DNA from: Escherichia phage Ecp_YSF
Sequence record: OR327751.1
Length of the DNA stretch: 53,268 bases
Direction: 5' to 3' (one strand)
How positions within the stretch are numbered: the first letter of the stretch is position 1; the number at the start of each line of letters is the position of its first letter. Position numbers and translations under genes: made by a program. The notes beneath the pieces are model-generated. The model saw nothing but the letters and a program-made list of their open reading frames with translations, made no database searches and was not told the origin of the DNA. Of this stretch, positions 3,069 through 53,268 are shown piece by piece.

Positions 3069-5003
3069 GTGTTGTATCCTTGGGAAAATATGTATGCCAG
3101 TGACATTGAAACAACTGGTCTGTTGGAGCAAATGCGTAAGCAAGCTGCACCACGTCTTCACAACATCGGGTATATCGATGTTCTGACTCGTGAAGAAACT
3201 GTAATAGAGTGGACCGACAGAAAGTCTATCCAGGCATTTCTGGATACAGGCCCAACATTAATCATGCACAACGGCGCAACCTTCGACTTTGAAGCACTGA
3301 GGTTCCTTGGTTACGACGTTTCAAAATGTACACTAATTGATACTTTGTTTATCAGTTGGTATCTGCAACCTCGTCGTGTTAAGCACGGCTTAGAAGGTTA
3401 CGGCGAAGAGTTTGGTGTGCCAAAACCAGTCATTGAAGATTGGGAAAATCAAACTCAAGAAGAGTACAACCATCGTGTGATGGAAGACTGCAAGATTCAG
3501 TTGAAGCTGTGGGAACAGCAATACATTCAACTCTTAAAGATTTATAAATCTCCTGGCGAAGTTAAACGCTTCGTTGAATATCTGATGACAAAAGCTCGTC
3601 AACAGGTTATTCAGCAACGAACTCGCTGGAAGTTAAACATTGAGAAGGCACTGGCATTTAAGGCCAAGCTGGAACCAATGATTAAAGAGAAGACGGACGC
3701 ATTGGAAGCATCAATGCCGCGTGTTCCGGAATATGTTATCAAAACCCGTCCAGCTAAATGCCACAAGATGAACGGGCAACTGTCTGCCACTGGAATTAAG
3801 TGGAAGGCTATTTGTGATGCAAACGGTTTGGACTGGAAAGACCCAGACCTGGCTATAAAAGTTCTTAAAGGCTATAAGAAGCCTAATGCTGGTTCACATG
3901 TTCAAATTAAAGACTGGTTGTTCAGCCTAGGTTGGGAACCAGAAACCTTTAAGTTTGACCGTAATAAGGAAACAGGTGAAACTCGCCAGATTCCACAAAT
4001 CACTGTGAAGGATGAAGATGGCAATCCTGAAATATGTCCGAGCTTGCATAAGCTGGCGGAAAGAAACCCCGACTCTGGTATTCAACATCTTATTGGGATG
4101 GGCGTGTATAAACACCGTCTGTCTGTTGTTAATGGCTTCCTTCGCGACGTCGATGAAGATGGGTTCCTTACTGCACGATGTGGTGGCCTTACCAATACTT
4201 TACGCCTTAAACATCGCGAACTTGTTAACCTCCCTTCTATTCGTGTATTTGGCGGTGAAGAACTGCGTTCAATGTTGGAAGCGTGGCGCGAAGATTACGA
4301 ACAGTTAGGCTCTGACTTGTGCTCACTGGAAGACCGTTGTAAGCACCACTTCCAGTGGATGTATGACCCTGAATACGTTAAGAAGCAGTTGGCACCAGAC
4401 TATGATGCTCACCTTGCAATTGGCGTAATTGGCGGATTTATTACCGAACAGGAATCTCAGGACCACAAGGACGGGATTAAGAAGTGTAAACAACGTCCAA
4501 TGTTTAAGACTACAAACTATGCTTGTCAGTATGGTGCTGGTGTACCAACTGTAGCTCGTTCTGCTGGCTGTGACCAGACTACTGCTGCACGACTGCATAA
4601 AGCATATTGGGACTTGAACTGGTCTATTAAAGAGATTGCTGCCAACACCAAAGTTGTAACAATTGATGGTCAGATGTGGCAACAGAATCCAGTAAACAAA
4701 TTCTGGTATTCGTTGCGTACAGAGAAAGACCGCTTCTCCACATTGTGTCAGGGCACTGGTGCATATGTGTTTGATGTTTGGTGTAACAACATCATTGCAA
4801 TTTGTAATGAACGTTGGGGCTGTGACCCGCTTCTGTCTGGACAATTCCATGATGAATTGATTCTCCAAGTTAAGAAAGGTTTCCGTGATTTGTGGACGGA
4901 CTTGCTTAATGAAGCAATGGACCGGACCAACAAAGAACTTAAACTCAATCGTGATTGTGCATGTGATGTACAATTTGGCGATAACTACGCAGAGATTCAC
5001 TAA
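3069..5003 (+). CDS. family A DNA polymerase with 3'-5' exonuclease (T7 gp5-like)
   Basis: Exo I motif DIETTGL. Polymerase motifs DLCSLEDR (A), KTTNYACQYGAG (B) and QFHDELILQV (C). GTG 3069 has GGAG at 3057-3060. Confidence 0.9.
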   Translation: MLYPWENMYASDIETTGLLEQMRKQAAPRLHNIGYIDVLTREETVIEWTDRKSIQAFLDTGPTLIMHNGATFDFEALRFLGYDVSKCTLIDTLFISWYLQPRRVKHGLEGYGEEFGVPKPVIEDWENQTQEEYNHRVMEDCKIQLKLWEQQYIQLLKIYKSPGEVKRFVEYLMTKARQQVIQQRTRWKLNIEKALAFKAKLEPMIKEKTDALEASMPRVPEYVIKTRPAKCHKMNGQLSATGIKWKAICDANGLDWKDPDLAIKVLKGYKKPNAGSHVQIKDWLFSLGWEPETFKFDRNKETGETRQIPQITVKDEDGNPEICPSLHKLAERNPDSGIQHLIGMGVYKHRLSVVNGFLRDVDEDGFLTARCGGLTNTLRLKHRELVNLPSIRVFGGEELRSMLEAWREDYEQLGSDLCSLEDRCKHHFQWMYDPEYVKKQLAPDYDAHLAIGVIGGFITEQESQDHKDGIKKCKQRPMFKTTNYACQYGAGVPTVARSAGCDQTTAARLHKAYWDLNWSIKEIAANTKVVTIDGQMWQQNPVNKFWYSLRTEKDRFSTLCQGTGAYVFDVWCNNIIAICNERWGCDPLLSGQFHDELILQVKKGFRDLWTDLLNEAMDRTNKELKLNRDCACDVQFGDNYAEIH

Positions 5004-47984: not shown

Positions 47985-48007
47985 CTGAAACATTAGTGGG
48001 ATTTGAT
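47985..48007 (+). promoter_or_regulatory. phage RNA polymerase promoter P6
   Basis: CTGAAACATTAGTGGGATTTGAT. Confidence 0.5.
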
Positions 48008-49548: not shown

Positions 49549-50223
49549 ATGTCTTATCATGATGATGACAAAGAGATTGCACTATCAACGTGTAAGCAAT
49601 GGCTCAATGATAATGATGCCGTCTATCTTGCCAAGGAAGATGTTATCATTATGTGGGTCCATTTTAATCCAGAATCGAAGCGCGGTGAGTGGCAACGCTA
49701 CAAGATGAAAGAGGCTTGTCGCATAATTAAAGCCACACGCGCTGGCTTCTCTGCTATGAAATACATCAAGCCAGAGATGCTGATGCTTGCTGCACAGGAA
49801 GAAGAACGTGCATATAAGCAAGCTGTTAAATCTCGTTCAACTGTTCCTCCAGAGTTCTTTAATTTGGAGCGCGCTGGACACTTCAACAATTTAGAAATGT
49901 TGACACTGTGCCTGTTGCAAGAATTAGTTGGAAGAGGACAAAACATTGAAGCTGTTTGTCTTGGAGAACTTATGAAAGAGTTGTTCTCGGCAAAGGGCTT
50001 TGCTGTGCCAAATCGAACTTTACGCTGGAAATTGTTGCGAGCAGTCGCTCAAGAAGCTGGTGTAGTTGTTCGTGACAGAACAAACCGACTCACTGTAACT
50101 GGAGTTGGGCGTTTTGTAGCAATCCAGATTGAGGGTTATGACGAATCAATCATCACTGAACTCACTGTCGATGAGACAAAGGATTTAGTAAATAAAACAC
50201 TAGAACGATTCAATAGATACTGA
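49549..50223 (+). CDS. hypothetical protein (224 aa)
   Basis: First ATG after the upstream stop codon. Confidence 0.55.
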   Translation: MSYHDDDKEIALSTCKQWLNDNDAVYLAKEDVIIMWVHFNPESKRGEWQRYKMKEACRIIKATRAGFSAMKYIKPEMLMLAAQEEERAYKQAVKSRSTVPPEFFNLERAGHFNNLEMLTLCLLQELVGRGQNIEAVCLGELMKELFSAKGFAVPNRTLRWKLLRAVAQEAGVVVRDRTNRLTVTGVGRFVAIQIEGYDESIITELTVDETKDLVNKTLERFNRY

Positions 50224-50247
50224 GTCGTTTGACGAATCAGAGCAGTT

Positions 50248-50270
50248 CTGAAACATTAGTTGGATGTGGA
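50248..50270 (+). promoter_or_regulatory. phage RNA polymerase promoter P10
   Basis: CTGAAACATTAGTTGGATGTGGA, with the core matching at 15 of 16 positions. Hairpin at 50220-50240 just upstream. Confidence 0.7.
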
Positions 50271-50346
50271 AAGAGAAAGGCTCTTTAATTTTATCTAAGT
50301 CACGTCATCGTGGCGTGCAAAACTATTCAATATAAGGTATATACAA

Positions 50347-50685
50347 ATGGCTAAGATTGTAACCGTAACTCAGTACGAAGCTAACGATGGTTCCCTGTTC
50401 CTGACCGAAGCAGAGTGTAATGCACACGACTTCAAACTGGAAAACGGTGCTAAAATTGAGAAAGCTGCCGAAGCGTACCTGAACACCGTTGGCGCTATCG
50501 ACCGTTCTCGCTCCATGCAGAAGAACACCATCGAGCAGTTCCTGGCATTCTACCTGCCGTGGGTTGAAGCTGGTGAGCCGGAAGTTGAGCGTACTAAGTT
50601 CGATACTCCGAAAGAAGCCAAAGTTGCTGACGCAAGTGTTGCCGAAGCTGCCGAAGCTGCTGTTGAAGAAGCTCCGGTATTCTAA
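50347..50685 (+). CDS. abundantly expressed acidic protein of unknown function (112 aa; tail ..EEAPVF)
   Basis: Strongly biased, capsid-like codon usage. Has its own promoter, P10. Confidence 0.65.
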   Translation: MAKIVTVTQYEANDGSLFLTEAECNAHDFKLENGAKIEKAAEAYLNTVGAIDRSRSMQKNTIEQFLAFYLPWVEAGEPEVERTKFDTPKEAKVADASVAEAAEAAVEEAPVF

Positions 50686-51583
50686 GTTGCCGATGGCAAA
50701 CTTGAGAGACTAAGCTAAATCGATCTGGCATGCACTGGGAGATCTGCCAGTGCTGCCTTGAATCCCATTCCAGAGTGAGTGGGCTTCAATGAGCATTCTT
50801 GTGATTAGAGTTGGGAGGTAGGCCGATGCCCAAGCTCGTGGCCCAGACAAGAGTGTTCATTGAAGTAGTTTTCTGAGTCTTACGACGGGCCTAAACTGCC
50901 TGGAGTTATTGCGACTGTTTTATTCATTTAAAATAAATGCAAATGATTCTGAAATGCGAGTTGCGGCTTAATTAAATTTAAGTCCTCTCCGTGGTCTTCC
51001 AATCCCACGTAACCAAATTTGGCGCATTGTGGCTTCGAGATGTGATTAATAAATCGGAGCAATAATTAATTTGTATTCTGCGATGCAAAGCAGGCTTAAG
51101 TCCTCCAGTGCGCGTGGGGATGTGACAGAGTACAAACTTAATTATGCAGTTGGATATTTCTAGAGGACGGACGAGCACACTGGAATGTCTTCAATTGGTT
51201 TAGTGTGAGAAGCTATGCCAATTTGAAACGTAACTCCTTGGGGAAGTGCTCCTCTGGATTTCCCTCCACACAGGAATCTCAAGCCTGTGGCAGCGACTTC
51301 GAAGCTGCACTGCGTAACCTAATTCACCCTAAAGTGAGTTGCCCTGAGCATGGAAATAAACTGCTCTAACCGATGGTATCTACAAAGGTAGATTAAATCA
51401 GGTTGCCTGTTGGTACTTGGGTTCAACACCTGCTTGCACTCGCAAAGTAGTGCCTCGTACCTGAGATGAAGTGAGTCGGGACCATCAATCCCACGTTATG
51501 TCAAAACACAGTAGGCGACTCACAGATTCTACAAGCCTCGCAGTTCGGGAAAACCTGCGTTATCAAAACCCCCCCCTCAATTT

Positions 51584-51679
51584 GGACGAGTAGCTCAGAA
51601 GGTCTGCTCCAGAGCTTAGTCAGGTAGAGCAATCTGTTCGACAGATGTGTCGTTGGTTCGAATCCAACCTCGTCCACCA
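51584..51679 (+). tRNA. aberrant tRNA (probable anticodon UCG, Arg) with a 19-21-nt hairpin insertion in the D loop and encoded CCA
   Basis: Acceptor GGACGAG/CTCGTCC. T arm GTTGG-TTCGAAT-CCAAC. D stem GCTC/GAGC enclosing the extra hairpin 51599-51617. The anticodon arm is only 15 nt. Confidence 0.6.
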
Positions 51680-51706
51680 ACTCTCAATAATAAACATGGA
51701 GTCCTT

Positions 51707-51847
51707 ATGGACATTGATGCACTAGACAATTTGGACTTCGGTGCTGCCGAAGAAGCAATTGAAGAACTCAAGAAAAAGCAGGACGAAGAAGCAATCGTTC
51801 CTGGTGCTGGCGATAACGACTGCTCAAGTGGTGCGTGCGCCATCTAA
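51707..51847 (+). CDS. 46-aa acidic peptide with a Cys-rich end (..DCSSGACAI)
   Basis: ATG 51707 lies 5 nt after GGAG. The ORF-track start 51647 lies inside the tRNA. Confidence 0.4.
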   Translation: MDIDALDNLDFGAAEEAIEELKKKQDEEAIVPGAGDNDCSSGACAI

Positions 51848-51855
51848 GGTGATTT

Positions 51856-52092
51856 ATGCAACAGCTTAAATCAATAATTCTTGGCGTCCTGACTGCATTT
51901 GGTATTATCATTGCAGTGTTCCTCAAAGGCAAAAGCTCAGGCAAAGCCGAGGAGCGTCAGGAAGCCACAGAGAAGCAACTAGATTCATTAAAAGAATCTA
52001 TCGAGATTAAATCGCATGTTCAGAAAGAAGTGTCTAGCAGTTCTGATAGCAATGTCGATAGTGAGTTGCTCTCAAAGTGGGTTCGTAAGTGA
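51856..52092 (+). CDS. i-spanin (Rz-like)
   Basis: N-terminal TM segment IILGVLTAFGIIIAVFL followed by charged coiled-coil sequence. Confidence 0.6.
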   Translation: MQQLKSIILGVLTAFGIIIAVFLKGKSSGKAEERQEATEKQLDSLKESIEIKSHVQKEVSSSSDSNVDSELLSKWVRK

Positions 52093-52225
52093 TTATTGCT
52101 TAATTGCACAACCAATCTATTTGGATGTTGCAGAAGTGAAAATCTTATCACGCGAAACCAAAACACAGATTTTAGTCCACAATGAAACGTGGGCACAAAA
52201 GTGTTCGAAACTTACCCGACAGTGA
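52016..52225 (+). CDS. o-spanin (Rz1-like lipoprotein), overlapping the i-spanin gene in another frame
   Basis: Signal sequence plus lipobox LAVLIAMSIVSC. Confidence 0.6.
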   Translation: MFRKKCLAVLIAMSIVSCSQSGFVSDYCLIAQPIYLDVAEVKILSRETKTQILVHNETWAQKCSKLTRQ

Positions 52226-52239
52226 GTGAACATGGCCTA

Positions 52240-52255
52240 GCTAGTTGGTGGTGTA
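52240..52255 (+). promoter_or_regulatory. weak promoter-like site P11
   Basis: GCTAGTTGGTGGTGTA matches the core at 11 of 16 positions. Confidence 0.3.
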
Positions 52256-52546
52256 AAGACTGACCAAGGTGACGACAGCCAAAGTCGAGGGAGTGCGCGA
52301 CTTTAAATAACGAGACTCTAGCCACTTGTGGTATGGCAGGTGTAACTCCTGCAATTGCTCTGGGCATAACAATTAAAATTGCTGCCTCGTATTGAACGCG
52401 AGAAAGTTCAGGTGGTCACTTCCTAGAACAGTGTCCGAGAACACACTCGCCAAAGTGCTTGAGAACGTTAGCTCTGTCTTGCCAGCATTAATGGCACGTT
52501 GGCCGCGTAAAGGCCGCAACCTCAATCATATATAAGGTAGTCTTCT

Positions 52547-52747
52547 ATGGACAAAATTAGCATTCGTGCAATCATTCGTAACGCAATCATTAATAATGAG
52601 GTGCGTACATATCAGTATCAAGAAATTCAGGTAGCTCTAGGTTGTAGCCGACATAAGGCAAAGCAACTTTATTACGCATTTCTGTATAACGCAGGGGATG
52701 CATTTCTTCGCAAGAAGTTGACAGAACCTGATAGCGACCCTTGTTAA
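52547..52747 (+). CDS. hypothetical protein (66 aa)
   Basis: RBS AAGG upstream. Confidence 0.5.
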   Translation: MDKISIRAIIRNAIINNEVRTYQYQEIQVALGCSRHKAKQLYYAFLYNAGDAFLRKKLTEPDSDPC

Positions 52748-52789
52748 TCATCACAGCGTCTGGCCAACGTATCGGCCGCCAAATTCAAT

Positions 52790-52857
52790 GGGATTTTCGT
52801 ATGTACGGGCTTGACCGTGGTGAAACGACCTGACTGGTTCGATTCCAGTGAATCCCA
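52790..52857 (+). ncRNA. tRNA-like element TL2 (acceptor stem plus canonical T arm, degenerate lower half)
   Basis: GGGATTT (52790-96) pairs with GAATCCC (52850-56). T arm ACTGG-TTCGATT-CCAGT (52833-49). The middle 36 nt do not form canonical D or anticodon arms. Confidence 0.4.
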
Positions 52858-53127
52858 CGAACAATGGATTCGTAGAGTTAATTAAACCTGCACGATGGGA
52901 TAGGGATGAAGCATCCGAGGCCGACTGTGTAATTGTGAACTTATCGTTCACCGAATCCACCAAATACCCGGGAGAAAGTGCTGTGGACGATATTGTATCG
53001 TAGGTGGTCGCATTCCACCCTCCCAACTCTTACCAAACAGTTATGCCTCTGTTCAAAAGGCTCAAGAGAGCGTCTGGCATACCGTAGCGATACGGCTTAG
53101 TTGCGCTGATTGTGTTGTGCAGAAAGA

Positions 53128-53268
53128 AAGTTCAGGCTTTCGTTTGGGTTACTCCTCATCCCGAAGTTAGCTGGATTCAAAATCCAGACTATGTTCCTAT
53201 ACACATGAAATATGCAAGTCGAGGGTTCTTAATGTTCAAACATGATGCGAGCATTGAGCGGGTTTATA
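53128..53268. repeat. second copy of the 141-bp terminal sequence
   Basis: Identical to 1-141. Confidence 0.95.

Follow-up and report, generated by a model that had tools for sequence, protein, structure and literature searches.

The region at positions 50690-51583 of the 53,268-nt stretch of Escherichia phage Ecp_YSF DNA analysed here (OR327751.1; hereinafter designated the window) is a non-coding, probably early-transcribed mosaic in which conserved hairpin modules stand beside cassettes that can be swapped, and it contains a tmRNA-like core that the initial annotation missed. Judged from its sequence, the core (50865-51143) is homologous to the mRNA-like part of tmRNA and appears to descend from that molecule. 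Our preferred reading, to which we assign a probability of roughly 55%, is that the window carries a mosaic of RNA modules in which the core, the message half of a tmRNA, is used as a tagging template; the tag-bearing RNA is most likely a phage-specified template for trans-translation. The comparisons below establish homology of the core to the tmRNA message domain, covarying pseudoknots, translation-type constraint, a wide distribution and a lack of annotation.

Within the core, the resume context AAUAAAU and then GCA open a start-less frame for a degradation-type tag (Table 1), and alignment of the tag region with E. coli ssrA gives a score that 0 of 500 shuffles reach. The tag occurs in the family as 34 DNA variants encoding 19 peptides, every one of them 10 codons long, with an entropy of 0.64, 0.59 and 1.13 at codon positions 1, 2 and 3, respectively. 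Codons 1-3 and 10 vary in the third base only, codon 10 using all four GCN triplets, and the stop codon across the family is TAA, TAG or TGA. At least 70 of 93 loci have an in-frame stop 3-8 codons 5′ of the tag with no intervening ATG, GTG or TTG, which excludes ordinary initiation. Carltongylesvirus-like phages have an in-frame start 10 codons 5′ of the tag (TTG in the window, ATG in PO103).

Such starts, together with ORFs of 20-66 aa, some of which are annotated in database records, favor a reading in which the region encodes small proteins (GJ1 gp30, SA91KD_35, MLP1 gp54 or a 20-aa ORF at 50909-50971 running into the tag), which we consider hardly credible. The GGAG lies just 3 nt 5′ of the TTG at 50909, GJ1 and about three quarters of the family lack a start upstream of the tag and have an in-frame stop there, and the phiEcoM-GJ1 gp30 ORF, whose frame an indel disrupts in the window, sits in an optional cassette missing from three relatives. 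The longest start-codon ORFs in 50690-51583 measure 54 aa on the + strand and 66 aa on the – strand, and a PHROG search with the ORFs of this region matched 0 families, while the flanking gene matches at 1e-65. The initial annotation saw no credible ORF here, a view borne out by the lack of conserved ORFs and PHROG matches; the 16-codon ORF it singled out is present at 50826-50876, with GGGAGG at 50813.

Table 1. Features of the mosaic and the adjoining tRNA-like element, in window coordinates.
Feature	Coordinates	Strand	Remarks
Hairpin GCACTGG-N8-CCAGTGC	50732-50753	+	just 3′ of the upstream gene; terminator-like without U-run
Module A hairpin TTGAA-CCCATTC...GAGTGGG-TTCAA	50758-50789	+	conserved
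Swappable cassette B	50791-50858	+	contains GGGAGG and the 16-codon ORF
5′ motif GTAGTTTTC of tmRNA-like module	50865-50873	+	candidate 5′ acceptor strand
Optional insert with CTGAGTCTTACGACGGG	50874-50905	+	CTGAGTCTTACGACGGG resembles E. coli tmRNA nt 5-24
Hairpin TTTATT-CATTTAA-AATAAA	50919-50937	+	directly 5′ of resume codon; read from sequence
Start-less tag frame GCA AAT GAT TCT GAA ATG CGA GTT GCG GCT TAA	50939-50971	+	ANDSEMRVAA, then stop
Stop-codon hairpin GGCTTAA/TTAAG(T)CC	50965-50985	+	counterpart of tmRNA helix 5
Pseudoknot A stem 1 CGTGG/CCACG	50990-50994 with 51005-51009	+	pseudoknot span 50990-51022
Pseudoknot A stem 2 CCAA/TTGG	50999-51002 with 51019-51022	+	
Pseudoknot B stem 1 CGCATT/GATGTG	51023-51028 with 51039-51044	+	pseudoknot span 51023-51059
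Pseudoknot B stem 2 CTTCGA/TCGGAG	51033-51038 with 51054-51059	+	
Long rod AATTAATTTGTA paired with TACAAACTTAATT	51064-51143	+	from the fold; encloses hairpins
Optional cassette D	51144-51325	+	absent in SA91KD, TH26 and BSBP01
Conserved module E	51326-51410	+	hairpin ATCTAC-AAAG-GTAGAT (51378-51393); outer stem AACCGAT/ATCAGGTT
Module F, two alleles	51411-51535	+	hairpin GCACT..AGTGC at 51436-51453
Module F 8-bp helix GTGAGTCG/CGACTCAC	51471-51478 with 51516-51523	+	
Conserved module G	51536-51583	+	hairpin CGCAG-N11-CTGCG (51539-51559), then C-run
Interrupted tRNA-like element, tRNA-Arg(UCG) body	51584-51680	+	D-arm-region insert or duplication of ~20-26 nt

The start of the module is marked by RGTTTTC, conserved across 91 loci, and at some loci a promoter of the form TTGACA-N17-TAGATT directly precedes this 5′ motif. 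The optional insert that follows is missing from PO103, TH23 and PYps23T, and its local alignment with E. coli ssrA has a score equalled by 8 of 500 shuffles. Upstream of the tag, where pseudoknot 1 would be expected, only a simple hairpin is seen; its counterpart in the matching subtype of other phages is TTTATC/GATAAA, and RNAalifold finds no supported structure at this site. The stop-codon hairpin falls on the helix-5 pairs of RF00023 in the model alignment, and other subtypes have equivalent stop-codon hairpins of different sequence. Two similar segments noticed in the initial annotation are present at 50965-50994 and 51093-51117, and the first of them consists of the stop-codon hairpin plus the first pseudoknot stem of the core. 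The string CTGAAATGCGAGTTGCGG (50949-50966), initially read as a degenerate promoter, exists but is made of tag codons, spanning the 3′ end of codon 4 to the start of codon 10; its promoter reading was rejected, as it lies more than five mismatches from the phage promoter set.

Downstream of the tag, the core forms two H-type pseudoknots, for which 98% of cells are paired across 91 distinct sequences, with both-side changes in 11 of 19 pairs (219 cells). The observed values are matched by 0 of 500 shuffles, and slid controls are 28-47% paired. The stems of pseudoknot A are paired in 99.3% and 99.7% of cells, and six of its nine pairs show both-side changes (91 sequences). Stem 1 of pseudoknot B is 100% paired, its fifth pair being C-G in 58, U-A in 21 and G-C in 12 sequences, and other subtypes form stem 2 from GCCC/GGGC, CCCTGA/TCAGGG or CCCCG/CGGGG. 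That the GTGATTAATAA loop is invariant among the collected sequences is an artefact produced by the search pattern. Model R1 scores 114 bits at 50925-51063, the window itself being a seed member of R1. The rod that follows takes the position of the AGGTAAGAGC...GCTCTTTCC rods in other loci, and its inner hairpin TCCTC/GGGGA (51101-51120) is replaced in relatives by TCCCT/AGGGA, CTGC/GCAG or TCCTA/TAGGA.

Existing models detect the tmRNA relationship weakly. Alignments to tmRNA families (6-27 bits) coincide in position between the window and six unrelated phages; in the window, RF04321 gives 20.5 bits at the tag region against a gathering threshold of 47, RF01849 14.6 bits against 50 and RF00023 6.1 bits against 47 (model positions 84-140). 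ARAGORN at default settings calls no tmRNA either in the window or across related loci totalling 1.09 Mb; at a 70% threshold it reports the window tag as a permuted type among obvious false positives, taking the last part of the protein gene upstream as acceptor piece. The resume string, ATAAAT followed by GCAAACGA, is shared with five bona fide ARAGORN tmRNAs. A scan of genome contigs (596 Gb) with the 14-mer ATAAATGCAAACGA returned, besides five real tmRNAs, mostly chance matches that carry no host-range information. RefSeq annotation does not recognise the element, blastn with the window region as query gives no match in E. coli genomes, and in the literature searched we found neither a link between tmRNA and Chaseviridae or Ackermannviridae beyond mentions of tools, nor any of six family tag peptides.

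The element is present in more than 100 IMG/VR loci, and its carriers include Chaseviridae, Ackermannviridae, Aeromonas phages and a 48-kb Klebsiella phage. Among 5426 complete E. coli genomes, 137 have it, placed between the Q antiterminator and holin genes as in P22-like prophages, and a P1-like plasmid copy specifies the tag ANDDLMMVAA. The element always adjoins tRNA genes or tRNA-like modules, and the sequence common to other genera amounts to only 140-150 nt.

We aligned the region with 11 relatives, including PO103, TH23, TH26, PYps23T, BSBP01 and SA91KD. Modules B, D and F, blocks of 68-182 nt, are swapped or deleted among near-identical phages (>90% identity) with the rest left untouched, indicating that the helices are local and modular. 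Cassette B exists as two unrelated alleles, is deleted in BSBP01 and has an extra insert of ~210 nt in SA91KD. By contrast with these variable flanks, the tmRNA-like module is the one part kept in 11 of 11 relatives and in distant genera; module G is almost invariant in all 11 relatives, also where D and F are missing, and module E is present too in Pectobacterium phage PM1. The hairpin at 50732-50753, conserved in relatives with a G-U variant, is a terminator according to the annotation of phage SA91KD, and a simple terminator scan makes no call there.

Relatives also show that pairing outside the core is maintained. Compensatory changes, the covariation that the initial annotation had proposed to look for, are found at 50758-50789, 51101-51120 and 51378-51393 and in the outer stem around the last of these. 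The module A hairpin becomes CCCACTCT/AGAGTGGG in BSBP01, the module E hairpin CCCAT/GTGGG in PO103 and TTCCAC/GTGGAA in TH23, and in the module E outer stem GAT/ATC is replaced by AAC/GTT or AAT/ATT; the module F 8-bp helix is kept in the PO103 group with a one-sided U-A to U-G change. All sequence features listed in the initial annotation are present within 1-10 nt of its coordinates, the CGCAG..CTGCG hairpin ending at 51559 and not at 51569.

The structured character that the initial annotation gave to this region is supported: it is conserved, it is associated with tRNA-like sequence, and over the whole 894 nt the + strand has a minimum free energy of –293 kcal/mol where shuffles give –255 ± 8.7 (z –4.44; as low a value in 0 of 20 shuffles); on the – strand z is –1.58. 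The + strand value and the adjoining tRNA-like sequence would suit a single large ornate RNA of the GOLLD/ROOL type extending over most of 50690-51583, as was first suggested. This suggestion did not survive the comparison and now appears very improbable, in that relatives reveal a mosaic in which B, D and F are lost or swapped with the rest unaffected, and so short a stretch is common to other genera. Rfam 15 has no gathering-threshold match across the window, with no GOLLD, ROOL or similar family, and large ornate RNA families are absent from the matches up to E = 10 in 50200-53268.

The same mosaic architecture, with cassettes exchanged between closely related phages, is what would be expected of an array of RNase P, RNase III and RNase E processing signals and decaying tRNAs, in which the tmRNA-like piece is a functionless fragment captured by recombination. 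The interrupted tRNA-Arg and T-loop-like remnants, the long perfect rods, which suit RNase III, and the constant proximity of the element to tRNA genes or tRNA-like modules agree with this picture. A relic, however, would not preserve pairing across 219 double-sided changes, nor would it keep an intact 10-codon frame through 34 variants in at least five unrelated phage groups, and retention of the module in every relative and in distant genera amid variable flanks is likewise at odds with it; we therefore regard a relic as improbable. The related suggestion of a graveyard of decayed tRNA genes was right in so far as an interrupted tRNA-Arg (51584-51680) and T-loop-like strings at 51421 and 51478, GGGTTCAACACC and GGGACCATCAATCCC in module F, are present; because the modules maintain their pairing through compensatory changes, unlike decaying sequence, plain tRNA decay does not account for them.

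The element at 51584-51680, initially called a tRNA, is tRNA-like, but ARAGORN makes no call and the Rfam tRNA model (RF00005) scores 27.9 bits against a gathering threshold of 29; it is callable as tRNA-Arg(UCG) only after deletion of ~20-26 nt. It is missing in BSBP01, its CCA is not conserved, and its anticodon loop reads TTCGA in the window and TAAGA in TH26.

No canonical tRNA-like domain for the core was found in the window, where it is either missing or degenerate. A scan for a 3′ acceptor partner identified AAGCTAT-G-CCA (51210-51220, in cassette D), which can pair with GTAGTTT (50865-50871) and is preceded by a T-loop-like TTCAATT. The whole-window scan is noisy, and 51210 is the sole match with both a T-loop-like string and CCA. 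The candidate acceptor stem (50865-71/51210-16, plus GCCA) has A3-U70 and no G3:U70, the pair needed for alanine charging, and its T stem is weak and its T arm degenerate. The stem lies in a cassette that three of the 11 relatives lack and shows no covariation, and its 3′ end is not significantly similar to ssrA (144 of 500 shuffles reach the score). Among 93 loci, a partner is found in Carltongylesvirus-like phages only. Three other pairings were rejected: GTTTTCG/TGGAGGC matches are G-U-rich and lie inside another hairpin; the module 5′ UUCUGAG with a downstream tRNA-like CUCAGAA depends on a string absent in PO103-type relatives; and the module 5′ GATAGT with the ACTATCC 3′ strand of tRNA-Ser(GCU) involves complete tRNAs at four loci only.

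The tRNA-like domain of related loci lies 3′ of the tag and is closed on itself, a topology unlike that of tmRNA. In an Erwinia phage, a 75-nt cloverleaf with CCA at its end follows the rod, and 24 loci have distinct tRNA-like domains closed by GUUGUGGUG/CACCACAAC; RNase P is expected to separate the tag part from such a closed 3′ unit. An Aeromonas phage copy has an ORF directly 3′ of the element.

The absence of a chargeable tRNA-like domain and of G3:U70 in the candidate acceptor raises the alternative that the core mimics the message and pseudoknot part of tmRNA, in this phage perhaps together with a non-chargeable tRNA-like end, is never translated and acts as a decoy or sponge, titrating a tmRNA-binding host factor such as SmpB, ribosomal protein S1 or RNase R and damping host trans-translation. 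The strong conservation of the pseudoknots is compatible with this role, and a published precedent exists in DS6A (Hudson et al., PMC4131195). Yet a decoy leaves unexplained the constant 10 codons, the third-position variation, the four alanine codons at codon 10 and the interchange of TAA, TAG and TGA, and the SmpB target is the tRNA-like domain, precisely the part that is missing. On these grounds we consider a decoy rather unlikely.

For the core as a tagging template, we infer transcription as a stable RNA, use by ribosomes and a delivery route as follows. A simple scan of 50200-51900 found no sigma-70 promoter or terminator, and the last phage-type promoter is at 50251. The transcript could arise by read-through from this promoter or from an unrecognised one, and the core RNA would then be trimmed out of the module array. 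Stalled host ribosomes would resume translation on it, so that unfinished proteins would receive the phage tag, which would replace or compete with the host tag ANDENYALAA. The tRNA function might be provided in one of three ways: by pairing of 50865-71 with AAGCUAU-G-CCA (51210-20), producing a one-piece RNA of 356 nt; by a separate tRNA-like partner just downstream, as in related loci; or by the host tmRNA-SmpB system. A more general proposal, which we advance tentatively and with considerable doubt, is that enterobacterial phages of many families (P1-like, P22-like, Ackermannviridae and Chaseviridae) carry an unrecognised split or topologically rearranged tmRNA, a message-domain RNA that reprograms rescue through a separate tRNA-like partner or host tmRNA-SmpB and puts a phage-chosen tag on stalled proteins of host or phage.

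tmRNA counts as a housekeeping RNA of bacteria, and the only phage copies known, to our knowledge, are complete genes carried by mycobacteriophages, Bacillus phage G and huge phages. The element described here would put into well-studied groups of E. coli phages a conserved tag template that looks translated and lacks a canonical tRNA-like domain. If the preferred reading is correct, phages manipulate ribosome rescue and ClpXP/SspB degradation in an undescribed way or, alternatively, a different RNA architecture can drive trans-translation. It would also offer a candidate function for a portion of the long stretch without annotation that separates Q from the lysis genes of lambdoid prophages and for the ‘hypothetical protein’ calls that overlie the element in several phage records. 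The prediction is directly testable, as the product is a specific C-terminal peptide.

A parallel in setting is offered by the T4 species 1 and 2 RNAs, small stable RNAs of unknown role that share a transcript with phage tRNA clusters and are freed by the enzymes of tRNA processing; they too are non-coding and lie beside phage tRNA genes, but are not known to have a tag-like reading frame. One-piece tmRNA (RF00023, E. coli ssrA) resembles the phage element in the A-rich resume context followed by GCA, in a start-less 10-codon tag that begins with AND and ends with AA, in a stop codon placed in a hairpin (helix 5) and in the H-type pseudoknots that follow the tag; the likeness would extend, in this phage, to paired ends, an encoded CCA and a total length that may be 356 nt. 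By contrast, the phage element lacks a recognisable tRNA-like domain, its T arm being degenerate or absent, appears to have a plain hairpin in place of pseudoknot 1, has two downstream pseudoknots instead of the canonical three, scores far under the Rfam and ARAGORN thresholds, and sits within an array of modules in a phage genome.

Two-piece permuted tmRNAs occur in alpha-proteobacteria, cyanobacteria and some beta-proteobacteria. Their models (RF01849, RF04321) give the best, though weak, Rfam matches, and coding and acceptor parts may be separate RNAs in both systems. Permuted genes encode the acceptor piece upstream and carry the 5′ acceptor strand on the coding piece, whereas the phage tRNA-like unit, where present, is downstream and self-closed, and scores are 20-27 bits against gathering thresholds of 47-50. 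No upstream acceptor piece was found, and the loci with a promoter have nothing transcribed upstream.

Phage-carried derivatives of tmRNA have been described as canonical genes in mycobacteriophages Bxz1, Catera and others, in Bacillus phage G and in huge phages (PMC4131195, PMC7162821); unlike the element in the window, these have full tRNA-like domains and are found by ARAGORN and Rfam. An exhaustive search of 543 phage genomes in 2014 reported ssrA in no enterobacterial phage (PMC4131195). Mycobacteriophage DS6A retains little beyond the tRNA-like domain of tmRNA, and a molecule of this type strongly inhibits tmRNA, perhaps through titration of SmpB (Hudson et al., PMC4131195). DS6A shows that a phage may retain a single half of a tmRNA, and the half kept in DS6A is the opposite of the one found here.

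The initial annotation described 50690-51583 as an ORF-free, structured stretch. All the sequence features it listed are present, within 1-10 nt of the positions given, and the region holds no credible ORF: the longest that include a start codon reach 54 aa and 66 aa, with no PHROG match. This argues against small proteins encoded in the region, as does the fate of the GJ1 gp30 ORF, which we rejected as a gene since it is frame-shifted in the window and sits in a block missing from three relatives. The structure signal is real and strand-specific, because the + strand RNA has a folding energy of -293 kcal/mol versus -255 +/- 8.7 in shuffles (z -4.44) whereas the - strand reaches only z -1.58. 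The neighbouring 'tRNA', an interrupted tRNA-like element (51584-51680), cannot be called in its present form. ARAGORN reports no tRNA or tmRNA anywhere in the window, the Rfam tRNA model gives 27.9 bits (threshold 29), and the element is callable as tRNA-Arg(UCG) only after removal of ~20-26 nt of the D-arm region.

The genome in the window is complete and belongs to a phiEcoM-GJ1-like myovirus (Chaseviridae, Carltongylesvirus); it has a 141-bp terminal direct repeat, and the region studied shares 94-98% identity with phages EcoM1, TH53, flopper and GJ1. Alignment of eleven Carltongylesvirus-like phages reveals a mosaic of conserved modules separated by blocks swapped for unrelated sequence or deleted. 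Three hairpins change among relatives with pairing kept: 50758-50789 becomes CCCACTCT/AGAGTGGG in BSBP01; TCCTC/GGGGA at 51101-51120 becomes TCCCT/AGGGA, CTGC/GCAG or TCCTA/TAGGA; and ATCTAC/GTAGAT at 51378-51393 becomes CCCAT/GTGGG or TTCCAC/GTGGAA, its outer stem being altered too. The mosaic and these two-sided changes exclude a single long-range 0.9-kb fold and speak against one large ornate RNA. The suggested graveyard of decayed tRNA genes fits poorly, because hairpins in which both strands change and pairing is preserved are unlike decaying pseudogenes.

Features of the region studied and of its tmRNA-like core (coordinates in the window)
Feature	Coordinates	Among relatives
Module A	50686-50790	conserved
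Block B	50791-50858	swapped or deleted
Module C	50859-51143	conserved
Helix 5	50965-50985	
Pseudoknot A	50990-51022	
Pseudoknot B	51023-51059	
Long rod	51064-51143	
Block D	51144-51325	missing in SA91KD, TH26 and BSBP01
Module E	51326-51410	conserved
Block F	51411-51535	two alleles
Module G	51536-51583	conserved

At permissive settings, Rfam tmRNA models of the permuted and alpha-proteobacterial types match weakly at 50864-51026, and these alignments land on a short reading frame (hereinafter designated the tag), AAAAUAAAU GCA AAU GAU UCU GAA AUG CGA GUU GCG GCU UAA, which reads ANDSEMRVAA*. Across related loci, 34 distinct DNA versions of the tag encode 19 peptides, and the frame is 10 codons long in every one. 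Mean entropy at codon positions 1/2/3 is 0.64/0.59/1.13 over the 34 versions; codons 1-3 and 10 vary at the third base only, codon 10 being drawn from GCG, GCC, GCT and GCA, and the stop is variously TAA, TAG or TGA. An in-frame stop is found 3-8 codons 5' of the tag, with no ATG, GTG or TTG between, in at least 70 of 93 loci, GJ1 among them. The tag is a start-less reading frame under translation-type constraint, the hallmark of a tmRNA. The tag region aligns to E. coli ssrA better than any of 500 shuffles (0/500 as good), and five genuine tmRNAs, met by chance in a genome scan, share the exact resume string ATAAAT|GCAAACGA.

The stretch from the end of tag codon 4 to the start of codon 10 (CTGAAATGCGAGTTGCGG, 50949-50966) also resembles the phage promoter consensus plus an upstream CTG (CTGAAACATTAGTTGGA); it has >5 mismatches to every annotated promoter 20-mer, in a comparison with the promoters at 47988, 48128, 49919 and 50251. 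The last promoter of the phage-type form, AAACATTAGTTGGATGTGGA, ends at 50251, just 5' of the gene at 50347-50685, which matches PHROG 17419. Two further stretches, 52225-52547 and 52750-53268, are ORF-poor and may represent more modules of the same kind; the second carries a perfect T-arm string, ACTGGTTCGATTCCAGT, at 52833-52849, followed by GAATCCCACG, and the motif AATCCCACG recurs at 51001 and 51488 besides this downstream stretch. Bases 1-141, which contain a T-arm-like CTGGATTCAAAATCCAG, are copied exactly at 53128-53268; the copy marks either a complete linear genome with a terminal direct repeat or an overlap left by assembly. HNH endonuclease genes interrupt the equivalent region in phages 4HA13 and Pel53; the recorded host of Pel53 is Staphylococcus hyicus, yet its Chaseviridae-like genome is ~91% identical to coliphages, and the host label may be wrong.

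The structure around and 3' of the tag is conserved through covariation. In an alignment of 91 distinct sequences, we counted pairs in the closing helix of the stop-codon region, both stems of the first H-type pseudoknot and the first stem of the second: 98% of cells are paired and 11 of 19 pairs show changes on both sides (219 cells), values reached by 0/500 shuffles, and pairing falls to 28-47% when the partners are slid. RNAalifold independently recovered stem 1 of each pseudoknot. Stem 2 of pseudoknot B differs by subtype (GCCC/GGGC, CCCTGA/TCAGGG, CTTCGA/TCGGAG, and CCCCG/CGGGG in P1-like plasmids). A covariance model of the core has one match in the window (50925-51063, 114 bits), the window itself being a seed member.

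By blastn, only ~140 nt around the tag are common to other genera, namely Erwinia and Pantoea Chaseviridae, an Aeromonas phage, ~157-kb Ackermannviridae and a 48-kb Klebsiella phage. These carry tags of the same form (ANDSEMRVDA, ANDNEMRAAA, ANDSEVLMAA, ANDDVVLMAA and ANEEVYLAVA), with the same weak tmRNA-model match at each locus. A pattern built from the structure 3' of the tag recovered at least 120 IMG/VR loci, and in all sequences searched a tag lies ~100 nt 5' of the pattern in 110 of 128 matches. The core occurs in 137 of 5426 complete E. coli genomes, always in an unannotated gap between the Q antiterminator and holin genes of P22-like or lambdoid prophages, and a more divergent copy in P1-like plasmids lies beside tRNA-Asn and tRNA-Thr (tag ANDDLMMVAA). 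A relic within a processing array would fit the mosaic architecture but neither the covariation nor this cross-family retention. The shortest version, in Aeromonas phage phiA050 (1981-2161, ~180 nt), stops after pseudoknot B with an SD-ATG ORF directly 3', and could serve there as a 5' leader. In Klebsiella phage Magnus (Ackermannviridae), whose record annotates many small 'hypothetical protein' ORFs over the non-coding array, an Rfam STnc100 match (3805-4019, 52.9 bits, threshold 47) sits 1.7 kb 3' of the module.

In the window, the candidate for a tRNA-like domain is an acceptor stem that GTAGTTT (50865-71) can form with AAGCTAT (51210-16); G and CCA come after this 3' strand, and a TTCAATT loop and GGAC lie before it. 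This candidate has A3-U70 instead of G3:U70, a weak T stem, a 3' half within optional cassette D and no covariation. Similarity to ssrA is not significant at the 3' end (reached by 144/500 shuffles) and borderline at the 5' end (8/500), which is located in an insert that three relatives are without. In related loci totalling 1.09 Mb, ARAGORN at default stringency called no tmRNA. Since closed tRNA-like units follow the rod in other subtypes, a putative tRNA-like partner is a recurrent neighbour of the module, with a topology unlike canonical tmRNA. In the Erwinia phage this unit is a cloverleaf of 75 nt with CCA at its end and an 'anticodon' loop that is too long. In 24 distinct loci, a helix of 8-9 bp (GUUGUGGUG/CACCACAAC) closes a multi-branch domain; its first hairpin and its last one either form a true D arm and T arm or have the mutually complementary loops GGCUGA and AUCAGC. 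Through the T arm of this domain, ARAGORN at a 90% threshold called four loci.

The multi-branch domain spans 85-220 nt after the tag module and rod (loci L008, L013, L018, L047, L091, L097 and others), and its loop complementarity resembles a kissing-loop replacement for the elbow that D-loop and T-loop form in a tRNA. At least three copies of GTTGTGG and CCACAAC/ACCACAA are present per locus (L088/L129, L011, L012, L017): upstream of the module, immediately ahead of the resume codon, and following both the rod and the T arm; alternative, mutually exclusive pairings are therefore possible. In L084 (5689-5776; also L015, L024 and L096), a phage tRNA-Ser(GCU) 3' of the module starts GGATAGTTGG and has GATAGTT in common with the module's 5' end (AGATAGTTTTCG), which makes the tRNA's 3' strand (ACTATCC-G-CCA) a complement of that end.

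Assignment of the element to the tmRNA family fails on the tRNA-like domain, a defining feature. The main rival, a pure decoy of tmRNA-binding factors, fits the missing domain and the precedent of DS6A (PMC4131195) but leaves the codon-level pattern unexplained. We favour the core as a putative trans-translation template that would write a phage-specified tag; on the tag evidence, the claim that the element would work like a tmRNA message domain stands.

In the 543 phage genomes searched by Hudson et al., ssrA was confined to mycobacteriophages, with Bacillus phage G and DS6A in addition (PMC4131195); the tmRNAs of huge phages were ARAGORN calls (PMC7162821). In the literature searched, Chaseviridae and Ackermannviridae papers name tmRNA only as a tool target, and none of the six family tag peptides looked for appears in any paper; RefSeq annotates nothing at the family sites. 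Within this literature and annotation, the tag-module family is undescribed. Set against the E. coli system, the tag is ANDSEMRVAA in the window versus ANDENYALAA, and the candidate acceptor pairing would delimit a 356-nt RNA, near in length to E. coli tmRNA (363 nt).
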